Made by a program: the position numbers and the translations under genes. Below, in pieces: positions 9,156-19,918 of a DNA stretch of 22,496 bases. The notes below the pieces were generated by a model. It worked only from the letters and a program-made list of their open reading frames with translations, had not been told where the DNA came from and ran no database searches. Every line of letters begins with the position of its first letter. The first letter of the stretch is position 1. This stretch comes from a virus (lineage: Duplodnaviria > Heunggongvirae > Uroviricota > Caudoviricetes). The stretch lies in IMG/VR virus record IMGVR_UViG_3300008114_001632; one strand, 5' to 3'.

Positions 9156-9776
9156 TTAAAATGCTTTTTCAAGAGATTCTGATTTAGACCAGCCTATCAA
9201 AAAGTTAGCCTTCCAATGGTTTTGTTCAAAGCCTTTTAGATCTTTCCATTGATCACGTTTGTTCCAAACACGTTGCGCCGCATCTTTCCAGTCCATGTGT
9301 CTAATTGTGTATTCTATACATATGAGTTGATTTTTAAACATTTCATAATTAACATTGTCGTGTTCTATGTGTAATACTTCAAACACTTCTCCACTAGGTG
9401 CTGTTGCATTTAGATCAAAGTCATAGCCCCATTTCTGTTTTGCTTGCAGTAGCATACGTGCTTGTGGAATTTCTTTAGAAATTTTAGTTAGTTGTTCAAA
9501 TGCATATTCTGCATAAGAGCACCGATGTAGTATTAGTGAATGATCTAAAAATAAATTATCATCTTCTAATTCAAACCAAGGTTCTTGCCAACACACATGA
9601 TTTAATATAGGATGATTGATAGGATATTGCATAGCGGAATAAAATTTGCGCTCTGCTTGATTTAACTCAAACCCGTCTTTGTCAAAATACTGAAAATCTT
9701 CTTTGTCTAGATTTTCAACTGCTCTAAGACACAACGGATTTGAAATTAACAAATAGTCCTGTCTGGCTAGTCGCAT
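9156..9776 (-). CDS. Hypothetical protein, 206 aa
   Basis: Long ORF; aromatic-rich; no motif recognised. Confidence 0.8.
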   Translation of the reverse strand: MRLARQDYLLISNPLCLRAVENLDKEDFQYFDKDGFELNQAERKFYSAMQYPINHPILNHVCWQEPWFELEDDNLFLDHSLILHRCSYAEYAFEQLTKISKEIPQARMLLQAKQKWGYDFDLNATAPSGEVFEVLHIEHDNVNYEMFKNQLICIEYTIRHMDWKDAAQRVWNKRDQWKDLKGFEQNHWKANFLIGWSKSESLEKAF

Positions 9777-12212: not shown

Positions 12213-12500
12213 TCAGTGTTTCCTAGTTGATTTATTAAGCTGTTGAACTCTCTTGCTAGCTGAATTTACTCGCTTAGTTCTATTTGACTTTCTTGACAAT
12301 CTAGCACCCATACGTGCTTTTGTAACTTTTAATCTTTTGCTTTTCTTAAGATCCGGTGGTGCAAAACATTGACTCATGTTGGCTACAATACGCCCGTGCC
12401 GACGACCGCCCATGCATCTATATTTGCGAACGACCTTTTTTCCGCTACGTGCCCAGACTTGTTTCTCGTCAAGGCTTATGGTAAGTTCTCTTAATAACAT
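12213..12500 (-). CDS. Highly basic small protein, paralog 2 (95 aa)
   Basis: WARSGKKVVRKYRC..G.R.GR aligns with the adjacent ORF. Confidence 0.8.
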   Translation of the reverse strand: MLLRELTISLDEKQVWARSGKKVVRKYRCMGGRRHGRIVANMSQCFAPPDLKKSKRLKVTKARMGARLSRKSNRTKRVNSASKRVQQLNKSTRKH

Positions 12501-12505
12501 GCAGT

Positions 12506-12512
12506 TATTTAT
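12506..12512 (-). promoter_or_regulatory. ATAAATA late-promoter-like motif 5 nt before an SD-less ATG
   Basis: ATAAATA-actgc-ATG; a TCGGGA-ccta-TCCCGA hairpin (12512-12527) lies directly upstream. Confidence 0.7.
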
Positions 12513-12536
12513 CGGGATAGGTCCCGACTAAAGATT

Positions 12537-13840: not shown

Positions 13841-14173
13841 TTAGCTCTTGTTTTTGGCTCTTTTATGCAGTAACTTGAGCTGTTGAATGTAGGCTGTACC
13901 AGAATTTACTATGTCTTCTACCATTTCAATGATAGGCATGTATCCTTCTACGAATGTACTAGGTACACTTTTACCTTCTTCTGCAAGCTCAACAAACTTT
14001 GTAGCTTTCATAGCGTTTTCTAATCCAACTAGGTAACCATAAAGAGCAACACGGCGTTGTTTAGAGAGACGCTCAACACGCCTACCTCGTATTCTGTCTA
14101 GGGCGTCTTCGTCAAGGTGTTGTTCAACAAGTCCTTCTTCGTACAGACCCTTAATGAAATTCATGTCTTTCAT
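13841..14173 (-). CDS. Hypothetical protein, 110 aa
   Basis: Coupled ORF; LYE/LVE/LDE sites near the N-terminus. Confidence 0.75.
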   Translation of the reverse strand: MKDMNFIKGLYEEGLVEQHLDEDALDRIRGRRVERLSKQRRVALYGYLVGLENAMKATKFVELAEEGKSVPSTFVEGYMPIIEMVEDIVNSGTAYIQQLKLLHKRAKNKS

Positions 14174-16605: not shown

Positions 16606-16855
16606 TTTGTTTACTCTCAATAACTTTTTGAATGCCACGCTTAAATTTACGAGGGTCGCCGCTCTTAATTGCATTAATGAATCGACGTTCTAGTTCTCCA
16701 GCAGTTTCAGCTTCGTAGGTGTTTGATATGCGATTAAGTAAGTTAATAGCACTTTCTATGATATTGCTGCCTGATGTTTCTATTAGAAGATCGTTATCCT
16801 TGGTACGACCAAGATTATTAAGTTCTTCTAATATGCTTCTAGTTCGCTTTCTCAT
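16592..16855 (-). CDS. Hypothetical helical protein, 87 aa
   Basis: GGAG SD and TAAATA motif upstream. Confidence 0.8.
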   Translation of the reverse strand: MRKRTRSILEELNNLGRTKDNDLLIETSGSNIIESAINLLNRISNTYEAETAGELERRFINAIKSGDPRKFKRGIQKVIESKQNEIE

Positions 16856-16874
16856 TTGTTACACTCCAGTGTAT

Positions 16875-16880
16875 TATTTA
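16875..16880 (-). promoter_or_regulatory. TAAATA late-promoter-like motif inside a 9-bp RBS-occluding hairpin (16857-16888)
   Basis: TGTTACACT-AAATAATACACTGG-AGTGTAACA-A-ATG. Confidence 0.75.
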
Positions 16881-16919
16881 GTGTAACATGCACAGAAAGA
16901 ATATGTACATATGACAGAC

Positions 16920-17189
16920 TCAAACTCCTGTAATAACATTTTCGGACCCTGTTGCAATTATGTGTCCACAGGATGCAGCATCACCTTGACGTGCAACTGG
17001 TCGATCTTCTGCTATAACTGTAGGCTCGTATCCTACTATCACAGCACCGTTATGCGGGCCTCCGGGTATGTGCGGAGTAATTACATCACCCAGAGTTACT
17101 ACAGGTGTATCGTTAACAATAACAGTTAACCGTCCAGAAATAATAGTTGATCCAGCGACATCTTTGCCTCGTCTTGCGGTCTTTGGCAT
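16920..17189 (-). CDS. PAAR-repeat protein (tail spike tip, T4 gp5.4-like)
   Basis: Three PAAR-like repeats (KTARRG, PVVTLGD, PVARQGD), His/Cys ligands PH..PH..CGH, and GSxNV ending. Confidence 0.9.
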   Translation of the reverse strand: MPKTARRGKDVAGSTIISGRLTVIVNDTPVVTLGDVITPHIPGGPHNGAVIVGYEPTVIAEDRPVARQGDAASCGHIIATGSENVITGV

Positions 17190-18046
17190 TAAAATATTCC
17201 GTCTTCGCCTGTTTGTACTGTAGCCTCAGGCGGAGTTCCGCCTGCTTTTTGTATAGCATTAGCTGACACTGCAACGCTAAAGTCGTCCAGCACATTTTTA
17301 AGAATTAGCGCACCTGCTACCGCATCAATAGAGTTTCTTAAAAGAGATGTTATGTACTGCAACGCAATGGTTTTCATAGTTATTGCGGCACTCATTATAT
17401 TTAAGGGTAATGAATAGCTAGGAAAAGCACCAGCTACTTCTGTTAAAATTGGCAAACCTACTCCTCCGCTAAAGGTTATGCCGCCAAGGCCTGGCCCACC
17501 TGGAGGTAACAAAGACAATTGTGGAGTAAATTTTAAAAAATCTGAAAAGAATCCCGCGGTGCGCATAGCTTGCGCTCCACTAACAATAGCAGACAGCGCA
17601 CCAGTTTCTACAATAGCGCCGCCTAGATCAGATAATATTGTTGCTCCAGGATTGGCTGGTGTTGGGACTGGTTCTTTATTTTCTATTAGAGCATTTCTTA
17701 CAATATTGTAATGATAAGGATCGAGTGCATCTTTAATTTTTATTCCGCCTTCGGGGTCCGTTATAGTTTGTAGTGCAACAGCAAGTTCAATTGTTACAAG
17801 TGCTTCTTGCGCCATCTGTATTGCAAGGTCACCAAACTCTGCAGAATGATTAGGAATATTAAGAAAAAATCCGCCGGTATGATTTGCAGGGCCTGTGGAA
17901 CCTATGCCATTGTTTAGTTCTGGAACTTGCAGACCAACATATATTGGAGCTGGAGGGACTAACGGTATATTACCAGTTAAAAAATTGAAACCTAACTTAT
18001 TAGCAACACCTGATAATCCGGAAACGGCACCTTCAAAAATAGACAT
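17189..18046 (-). CDS. Gly/Pro/Ala-rich hydrophobic hypothetical protein, 285 aa, coupled to PAAR
   Basis: TAATG overlap with PAAR; AGGAG SD; late motif upstream. Confidence 0.75.
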   Translation of the reverse strand: MSIFEGAVSGLSGVANKLGFNFLTGNIPLVPPAPIYVGLQVPELNNGIGSTGPANHTGGFFLNIPNHSAEFGDLAIQMAQEALVTIELAVALQTITDPEGGIKIKDALDPYHYNIVRNALIENKEPVPTPANPGATILSDLGGAIVETGALSAIVSGAQAMRTAGFFSDFLKFTPQLSLLPPGGPGLGGITFSGGVGLPILTEVAGAFPSYSLPLNIMSAAITMKTIALQYITSLLRNSIDAVAGALILKNVLDDFSVAVSANAIQKAGGTPPEATVQTGEDGIF

Positions 18047-18065
18047 AGTAATTTCTCCTGTACAC

Positions 18066-18072
18066 TATTTAT
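18066..18072 (-). promoter_or_regulatory. ATAAATA late-promoter-like motif inside an anti-SD hairpin (18055-18079)
   Basis: CTCCTG-aATAAATAgtgta-CAGGAG-aaattact-ATG. Confidence 0.75.
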
Positions 18073-18833
18073 TCAGGAGTTTTCCGTACTTTGTTGTTGT
18101 ATTCTACTGCTTGTTTGAGTACACTTAAATCTACATTATCGCGTTCAGCTGAATGAATAATTGCAGATGTATCTTTAGGGAAACAATGTCCGCCCCAACC
18201 ACGTTCATCTGTGATCGCTGTGTGACTTCCACCAATCCTTGGGTCAACTCCCACCAGCTGTGCTACTAGATTATAGTCTATATCTTTTGCTTTACAAAAA
18301 TCAAATATTTGATTAAAGAAACTAACCTTTGTAGCAAGGAATGCATTTCTAAAATATTTTCCTGCTATTAAAAGTTTTGGATCCATACGGCCCACACTAA
18401 GATTTAGAATTGCTTTGGAATATACATCATGCCAAAACTCGACTCCACTGCCGCCCATAAAAAGTACGTTCTCGCTCCACATGTCTTTTTCAGCATGATC
18501 GGATCTTAAAAACTCTGGACAAAATGTTAAGTTATGCTCAGGAAATGATTCTGTTAGCATTTCCCAACCTTCTATCGAAATAGTGCTGCGAATGATAATT
18601 GGTGTAGATTTGTTTGTTTGACTTATTACATCATAAACATTGGCCATTTCACATGCACCATTGTGTCTTGCAGGAGTAGACACGCAACAAATTACTCCGT
18701 CTGTGTCGTCTGCAAAGTCCTGTACAGTCTTTCCTAACACCAATGGGTCAGCTAGTCTGAGTTCGTGTTTGTGGCCTAATATAGCTTTGTGTGCTTGGCC
18801 AAGCACACCGTAACCTGCGATTGTGATTTTCAT
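18069..18833 (-). CDS. UDP-glucose/GDP-mannose dehydrogenase-family protein lacking the C-terminal domain, 254 aa
   Basis: GYGVLG (GxGxxG), CVSTP, IIRSTI, FCPEFLR, KYFRNAFLATKVSFFN, catalytic GGHCFPKD. Confidence 0.9.
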   Translation of the reverse strand: MKITIAGYGVLGQAHKAILGHKHELRLADPLVLGKTVQDFADDTDGVICCVSTPARHNGACEMANVYDVISQTNKSTPIIIRSTISIEGWEMLTESFPEHNLTFCPEFLRSDHAEKDMWSENVLFMGGSGVEFWHDVYSKAILNLSVGRMDPKLLIAGKYFRNAFLATKVSFFNQIFDFCKAKDIDYNLVAQLVGVDPRIGGSHTAITDERGWGGHCFPKDTSAIIHSAERDNVDLSVLKQAVEYNNKVRKTPE

Positions 18834-18839
18834 ACGCTT

Positions 18840-18867
18840 ATTTTACTACCTTTTTGTATAATGTCAA
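18840..18867 (-). promoter_or_regulatory. Sigma70-type promoter TTGACA-N16-TAAAAT, 6 nt before an SD-less ATG
   Basis: -35 at 18862-18867, -10 at 18840-18845, ATG at 18833. Confidence 0.7.
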
Positions 18868-19534: not shown

Positions 19535-19892
19535 TTACGGCCGCCTTAATAGCATCTTCTGCTAGAATTGAACAATGGATCTTTACTGGGGGTAATGCTA
19601 GTTCTGTGGCGATTTCGGAGTTTTTGATTGCTCCTGCTTCGTCGAGGGTTTTACCTTTGAGCCATTCTGTAACGAGGCTCGAACTTGCGATAGCCGATCC
19701 GCAGCCATACGTTTTAAATTTTGCATCTGTAATAATACCTGTATCATGATCCACCTTTATCTGTAGTTTCATAACATCACCGCAAGCAGGTGCGCCAACC
19801 ATGCCTGTACCAATGTCAGCATCGTTCTTATCAAAGCTACCTACGTTGCGAGGATTTTCGTAATGATCAATAACTTTGTTACTGTAAGCCAT
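19506..19892 (-). CDS. iscU: Fe-S scaffold IscU (start moved to MAYSNKV)
   Basis: HYENPRNVG, GAPACGD, YGCG, LPPVK, HCS; AAGGAG SD before the ATG at 19892. Confidence 0.96.
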   Translation of the reverse strand: MAYSNKVIDHYENPRNVGSFDKNDADIGTGMVGAPACGDVMKLQIKVDHDTGIITDAKFKTYGCGSAIASSSLVTEWLKGKTLDEAGAIKNSEIATELALPPVKIHCSILAEDAIKAAVNDYRNRNSK

Positions 19893-19911
19893 GTGTTTCT
19901 CCTTGAGCATA

Positions 19912-19918
19912 TATTTAT
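19912..19918 (-). promoter_or_regulatory. ATAAATA late-promoter-like motif upstream of iscU
   Basis: 19 nt before the iscU ATG, within a small GGGCATA-aata-TATGCTC hairpin. Confidence 0.65.

Follow-up and report, generated by a model that had tools for sequence, protein, structure and literature searches.

The closing codons of a dehydrogenase-like gene in a Caudoviricetes contig (IMG/VR record IMGVR_UViG_3300008114_001632) are exactly complementary to the Shine-Dalgarno (SD) sequence of the gene that follows, and a TAAATA motif lies between the two. This arrangement raises the question of whether RNA reading in from upstream folds so as to hide the ribosome-binding site (RBS) of the downstream gene while RNA begun at the motif leaves it free, as the initial annotation proposed when it described the site as the fourth early-transcript translation lock within 10 kb. 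The window, that is, the whole stretch of DNA analysed (22,496 nt), corresponds, in reverse complement, to the initial 22.5 kb of an IMG/VR contig of 111.6 kb, which is 32% complete by CheckV and carries its genes nearly all on one strand; positions given below are those of the window, on its minus strand, except where a genome position is indicated.

Architecture of the junction and its flanking genes

The 3' end of the dehydrogenase-like ORF (18069-18833) reads ...AAA ACT CCT GAA TAA, and the 5' arm of the predicted hairpin, CTCCTG (18079-18074), lies inside the ACT CCT GAA codons (T-P-E, residues 252-254) that close it, where it complements the SD and forms the stem of the minimum free energy (MFE) structure. 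The 3' arm, CAGGAG (18060-18055), carries the SD sequence AGGAG and is separated by 8 nt (AAATTACT) from the ATG (18046-18044) of a gene encoding 285 aa (17189-18046). The arms enclose a 13-nt loop, AATAAATAGTGTA (18073-18061), which contains both the TAA stop codon (18071-18069) and a T4-late-type promoter-like box, AATAAATA (18073-18066), made up of a TAAATA core (18071-18066) and the two bases 5' of it; the stop codon is the first three bases of the core, and GTGTA then separates the box from CAGGAG. The intergenic spacer, from the stop to the ATG of the 285-aa gene, is only 22 nt, with the SD 9-14 nt past the stop. An optional and weak outer helix, pairing AGTA (18087-18090) with TACT (18050-18047) just 5' of the ATG, is present in both the MFE and the centroid structures of an 80-nt read-through RNA. 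The arms, loop, spacing and multiple use of the ORF end had all been described correctly, in every element, in the initial annotation.

The upstream gene encodes a 254-aa protein of truncated UDP-glucose/GDP-mannose dehydrogenase type (Pfam PF00984, 2.9e-24, plus PF03721; PHROG 9148), which lacks the C-terminal UDP-binding domain and matches the Pfam N-domain model (187 positions) only from position 70 onward. Since the short form is conserved in all relatives (252-255 aa), the gene is not regarded as broken; judged from its sequence, the protein can hardly have standard dehydrogenase activity. Profile searches with the 285-aa protein found no relative in Pfam, PHROG or PDB, and its AlphaFold2 model (pLDDT 56) was unusable. 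It has 53 homologues, and its N-terminal residues M1, I3, F4 and G6 are conserved in 32 homologues. The stop codon of this gene overlaps the start of the next, to which it is coupled and which encodes an 89-aa PAAR-motif protein of the spike-tip type (16920-17189; PF05488 at 2.4e-15), with synteny kept in all close loci. Megablast of the region against GenBank phages gave zero matches, and a single-sequence scan of viral contigs found one relative, an alignment-based search being required for the remainder.

TAAATA as a conserved promoter-like box

Late promoters of phage T4 carry an 8-bp box, TATAAATA, about one helical turn before +1, which is read by gp55 (PMC2988020). Copies of this canonical box number 0 in the window, against 2.2 expected. 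The TAAATA hexamer, counted on both strands of the whole contig, lies no more than 60 nt upstream of a same-strand start in 32 of its 83 copies where 3.7 would be expected (binomial p 4e-22), a start-proximity of about 9-fold, and is depleted elsewhere in the contig; on the gene-rich strand the motif falls below its Markov expectation (53 vs 87). Among 15 composition-matched hexamers, TAAATA was both the rarest and the most start-proximal (39%). The extended consensus across the contig is roughly (G)(A/G)TAAATA(C), and the distances from TAAATA to ATG are bimodal, one class of ten genes with no SD lying at 3-6 nt and a second, SD-containing class that includes the junction lying at 16-36 nt.

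Comparison of the relatives further revealed that, at each of the 23 distinct loci analysed, with protein identities as low as 39%, the homologue of the 285-aa gene is preceded by TAAATA; the arrangement is TAAATA-N6-AGGAG in most of them, and the TAA often doubles as the upstream stop codon. Taken from the sequences, these observations support TAAATA as a real, conserved promoter-like box; at the junction, the promoter box and the RBS constitute the solid result and the stem is weaker evidence. If T4 geometry applies, RNA started from the box would have its +1 at about 18060-18059, on or next to the C of CAGGAG.

The class with TAAATA 3-6 nt before the ATG and no SD includes genes with genome starts at 9170, 9997, 25348, 29370, 40598, 81465 and 84129, and is represented in the window at 12496-12527, 13327 and 20329; these genes probably give leaderless mRNAs from the phage box. 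A role for TAAATA as an RNA-processing site was considered and rejected, as this class better fits a transcription start site.

Two TAAATA genes match virion-structural PHROGs, and the 285-aa gene is linked to PAAR. The 'late' status of the box is nevertheless unproven because genes for IscU-like and QueD-like proteins are likewise preceded by TAAATA. Searches of the 111.6-kb fragment for T4 gp55 and gp45 gave no match, which is uninformative at 32% completeness, and the Pfam models Gp23 and gp19 found nothing in the same 32%-complete fragment, the Gp23 control having matched nowhere. The IscU-like gene has its own TAAATA-N9-GGAGA (19892-19918; genome 2580-2607), and its start is probably the ATG at genome 2605, giving 128 aa; in the longer ORF that begins with GTG, the Pfam match does not start until residue 41. 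Fe-S cluster genes that lie upstream of the dehydrogenase thus also stand behind a phage TAAATA box.

Promoter of the upstream gene and predicted read-through

The best sigma70-like match in the region, TTGACA-16-TAAAAT (18867-18840; 11/12 match), is directly 5' of the dehydrogenase ATG, and the arrangement TTGACA-N17-TA(T/A)AAT-N6-ATG is kept in 10 of the 11 loci for which this region is available. In this promoter region (18834-18867; L022-L037 among the relatives), the -10 element ends 6 nt before the ATG and there is no SD, which suggests that the dehydrogenase mRNA is leaderless and early, from a host-type promoter. On the minus strand between this promoter and the end of the 285-aa gene (18833-17189), no terminator-like site was found. 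The earlier claim that the upstream gene has a sigma70 promoter and no terminator is therefore borne out, and the promoter is conserved besides. From these sequences we infer both the early and late timing and the transcript starts at the junction, and the site is best explained as a transcription-unit boundary, at which an early-type gene would give way to a virion-type pair (the 285-aa gene and the PAAR gene).

Predicted masking of the ribosome-binding site

The 6-bp stem alone has a folding energy of -8.9 kcal/mol at 37°C and -12.8 kcal/mol at 20°C. In an 80-nt read-through RNA, the SD pairs with the upstream arm with a probability of 0.8-1.0, and the energy needed to open the RBS, taken from the SD to the AUG, is 7.4 kcal/mol for the long RNA versus 1.3 kcal/mol for the short RNA; the SD is thus predicted by the folding models to be masked in read-through RNA at the junction. 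The same code gave 15.7, 16.9 and 9.6 kcal/mol for the long RNAs of T4 genes e, 49 and soc, respectively, against 1.1-3.0 kcal/mol for the short ones, with stems of 10-16 bp. The window stem is weaker than every one of these validated T4 locks (9.6-16.9 kcal/mol) and is the weakest locked form among the lineages. Whatever effect it may have on translation is read from these modelled energies and, the stem being weaker than all validated examples, would be at best that of a partial brake.

Two statistics were applied to the pairing. The first considered the SD paired only with bases 5' of TAAATA and, with 40 nt of such sequence, gave dinucleotide-shuffle p values of 0.007-0.015 for the window site. 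Because it missed T4 soc and 49, it was replaced by the opening energy of the whole RBS, with shuffling of all bases missing from the late RNA. With this final statistic, the T4 locks e, 49 and soc are recovered at p 0.010, 0.010 and 0.020, and 84 SD genes lacking TAAATA, used for calibration, give Fisher 0.78. At the junction the statistic compares the 7.4 kcal/mol with about 4.0-4.7 kcal/mol in shuffles (p 0.05-0.10 by variant), and the plain fold z-score of the stem is -1.07; the window stem alone is therefore marginal, with a shuffle p between 0.007 and 0.10 depending on the statistic. A search of Rfam returned nothing relevant.

Such whole-RBS and z-score values are in keeping with a chance by-product, in which only the box, the SD and their spacing are functional and CTCCTG represents Thr-Pro codons that happen to complement AGGAG, unselected in this lineage. 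We regard this explanation as doubtful, though it carries appreciable weight, and the evidence that bears on it comes mainly from the relatives.

The same junction in related lineages

In the crown clade, CTCCTG is identical in the window, L022-L025, L026-L028 and L029, with TAGGAG as the 3' arm in L026-L028 (a G-U closing pair). The arm is broken in three close lineages (L002, CACCAG; L030, CACCCG; L031, CTACAG), and since L030 keeps the K-T-P-E end with ACA CCC, its stem has been destroyed by synonymous changes. Third-position identity between these genes is 0.5-0.65, so that neutral drift would be expected to keep the arm about as often as is seen, in 4 of the 6 crown lineages. Both the loss and the retention fit the chance by-product, as does the lack of significance in a partner-swap test (p 0.12, or 0.24 with the window lineage left out). 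A synonymous-site test inside the 'locked' group was circular, and was rejected once the sister lineages L030 and L031 were included.

Other lineages speak against chance, for there unrelated sequences mask the same RBS. The hairpin of L007 is composite, with about 21 bp and a stem energy of -18.8 kcal/mol; its apical loop carries TAAATA, its 3' half contains the SD as well as the AUG, and the locus reaches p 0.007 by the final statistic (15.8 vs 6.8 kcal/mol). In L034 and L037 a stem of 10-12 bp (-10.9 kcal/mol; for L034, p 0.013, 10.8 vs 4.5 kcal/mol) extends between the stop codon and the nucleotide immediately 5' of the AUG. Its 5' arm, which begins with the stop codon, is nearly all noncoding, and these two loci share an identical 41-nt spacer despite different flanking codons. 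In L004 (p 0.033) and L006 (p 0.060) the form is soc-like, the box and the next bases pairing with the AUG and first codons. L005 reached p 0.040; in L033 both sides of the stem have changed (ACCCCT/AGGGGT; p 0.17); and L002, L003, L009, L010, L014, L030 and L031 were not significant. The pairing partners of the soc-like form, seen in the marine or estuarine loci L004, L006 and L015, are GATAAATACTTGTAA (box and next bases) and ATGGGTATTATATC (AUG and first codons); the loop contains the SD.

Combined over independent lineages, Fisher's test gave 0.0013, or 0.0021 without the window lineage, the omission of which removes ascertainment, and 0.0047 when L004 and L006 were in addition counted once, the independence of lineages being approximate. 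The signal is confined to the whole-RBS statistic: the SD-only statistic was not significant across the family, the hand-combined Fisher value being about 0.1 when the window lineage is included and about 0.4 when it is left out. A count of structure pairs on a MAFFT alignment gave 70.6% paired versus 64.1% when shuffled, a difference of little weight given that geometries differ and rows are related. By the whole-RBS statistic, the model-based comparison supports masking of the same RBS by differing sequences in other lineages.

The exactness of the inverted repeat CTCCTG-N13-CAGGAG around the box would also suit a DNA operator bound by a dimeric regulator, promoter-centred inverted repeats being typical operators. 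The arms, however, are found at no other TAAATA site in the genome, and across lineages they vary yet complement the RBS, one arm always being the SD or AUG region. Because a changing arm sequence with kept RBS complementarity fits RNA pairing and does not fit a protein site, the operator was rejected as highly improbable.

Masking across the genome

The initial annotation counted four instances of the switch in 10 kb and suggested its systematic use. All four exist as sequence, but under the calibrated test only lock 1, at a 577-aa gene, is individually significant (p 0.01), with p values of 0.28 for lock 2, 0.63 for lock 3 and 0.10 for the present site. The opening cost at the 577-aa gene is 12.1 kcal/mol, within the T4 range. 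Among the 19 TAAATA genes with an SD in the contig, three reached p<=0.05 (Fisher 0.22; Mann-Whitney against controls 0.24), earlier variants of the test gave the same answer, and a yield of 2-3 in 19 is near expectation, which again agrees with chance pairing. The three genes with significant masking have genome starts at 14109 (window 8388), 37050 and 85342 (p 0.01, 0.05 and 0.05, respectively). A raw class difference (0.42 for the lock class vs 0.20) disappeared when each class was set against its own shuffles (0.42 vs 0.38). Among ordinary SD genes of the contig, such pairing lies slightly below the null (0.23 vs 0.26), a tendency to avoidance that counts against chance. Genes with TAAATA and an SD are no more masked than shuffles or than genes lacking TAAATA, and the genome-wide scan against shuffled controls that the annotation itself had put forward as a check showed no enrichment; by that criterion, the suggestion of systematic use is not supported.

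A further element precedes an 87-aa gene (16853-16888), reading GTTACAC-TAAATA-ATACAxxGGAGTGTAA(C/T)A, and is nearly invariant in L022-L037 even where the neighbouring protein is only 55% identical. It would form an 8-9 bp stem varying mainly from G-C to G-U, in place of which L033 has ACTCC...GGAGT. In the window this element was not significant in the shuffle test (p 0.63), despite its striking sequence conservation.

Proposed mechanism and competing readings

The reading that we put forward is that the junction is a minimal member of the T4 e/soc/49/I-TevI type, in which read-through RNA masks the RBS and box-started RNA does not; its chances of being right or wrong appear to us about evenly balanced. 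The sigma70-promoted dehydrogenase unit, without a terminator, would read into the 285-aa and PAAR pair, which would have its own T4-late-type box (AATAAATA) over the upstream stop, 6 nt before AGGAG. In read-through RNA, the end codons CTCCTG of the dehydrogenase gene would pair with CAGGAG and mask the SD. RNA begun about 6 nt past the box would start at the SD, without the 5' arm, and would be freely translatable. The 6-bp form would amount to a modest bias (about 6 kcal/mol) against read-through translation and not to an absolute lock. The translation lock as initially conceived thus survives in part: the conserved box, the sigma70 promoter, the predicted masking of the SD, the masking of the RBS in other lineages and a late-type RNA without the 5' arm speak for it, while the stem is the weakest form, is lost in three close lineages, and the labels 'early' and 'late' are themselves deduced.

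The position of the 5' arm allows a second mechanical reading. Because the arm consists of the last three codons of the dehydrogenase ORF, translational coupling by RNA unfolding is plausible, and it is an equally mechanical account of an arm that lies in translated codons: translation of the 285-aa gene would depend on ribosomes finishing the dehydrogenase ORF, which would open the stem since they translate its 5' arm, and this counts against a lock. The geometry agrees: the structure that would inhibit the downstream RBS draws its 5' strand from codons 252-254 of the upstream ORF, the stop codon falls in the loop, 22 nt from the ATG, and the SD follows this stop by 9-14 nt. The 5' half in L007 is also coding, and that in L034 starts at the stop codon. 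An RNA-unfolding model of this kind has been described with f1 VII/IX, MS2 and rpmI-rplT as examples (PMC12548453). Coupling, however, needs no promoter box, yet the hairpin loop holds a conserved one between the two ORFs; no stoichiometric link is evident between a metabolic enzyme and a PAAR-associated protein; and the similarly placed 5' arm of T4 gene e, with a 37-nt spacer after nudE, still represses about 100-fold. On balance, we judge coupling to be improbable as the explanation of the junction.

Another reading, broader than a minimal T4-type lock and in our judgement rather unlikely, sees in the hairpin a part of a general, '5'-end-defined' programme of translation in this phage group, with +1 placed at the AUG or the SD. 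Efficient translation of a gene would then be confined to RNA from its own promoter, +1 falling at AUG or SD in both promoter classes, and read-through RNA would be poorly translated through buried leaderless starts or small maskings. Its examples would be TTGACA-N17-TATAAT-N6-ATG at the dehydrogenase gene, the ten genes with TAAATA-N3-6-ATG, and TAAATA-N6-AGGAG at the junction.

Comparison with known systems

The TAAATA core resembles T4-family late promoters in lying a short fixed distance before the RBS or ATG, without a -35 element and with AT-rich sequence downstream. Nine T4 late promoters carry A at -13, giving AATAAATA (PMC2988020), and the junction box is this same A(-13) variant; the late promoter box of cyanophage S-PM2 is NATAAATA (PMC2984593). 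Unlike the T4 box TATAAATA, the consensus here is (G)(A/G)TAAATA(C) and the box also precedes IscU-like and QueD-like genes; a further difference from T4-family late promoters is that gp55 and gp45 were not found in the 32%-complete fragment.

The downstream RBS would pair with the closing codons of the upstream ORF, as in f1 VII/IX, MS2 coat-lysis and E. coli rpmI-rplT (PMC12548453), and ribosomes terminating there would open the helix. The junction differs from these coupled pairs in having a conserved promoter box between the ORFs and products that are functionally unrelated.

The RBSs of T4 genes e, soc, 49 and I-TevI are sequestered by hairpins whose 5' strand contains or adjoins a late promoter (Uzan and Miller 2010, PMC3014915), and the gene e hairpin represses about 100-fold (PMC3014915). 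The junction is like these in that the SD is predicted to be paired in RNA from upstream, with a TATAAATA-type box inside the structure, from which a transcript would begin without the 5' arm; in that upstream transcription would start at a host-type promoter and meet no terminator; and in that the relatives show both an e-like form (box in the loop) and a soc-like form (box in the 5' arm). It is unlike them in strength (6 bp and 7.4 kcal/mol, against 10-16 bp and 9.6-16.9 kcal/mol in T4), in having a 5' arm made of translated upstream codons and a box that supplies the upstream stop, and in a stem that is missing in some close relatives.

If the proposed reading is true, the T4 timing trick, by which a gene is translatable only from its own late promoter, would extend to distant uncultured phages, and the device would turn over quickly, with 6-bp, 12-bp, ~21-bp and soc-like versions by lineage and none in others. 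In practical terms, the site marks a transcription-unit boundary and a promoter motif for the annotation of these genomes. The mechanism is not new, the device being known from T4 (PMC3014915). What the junction would add is modest: a member in a distant phage group, a 5' arm and box written into the end of a coding sequence, and a fast turnover of structure at one conserved junction.
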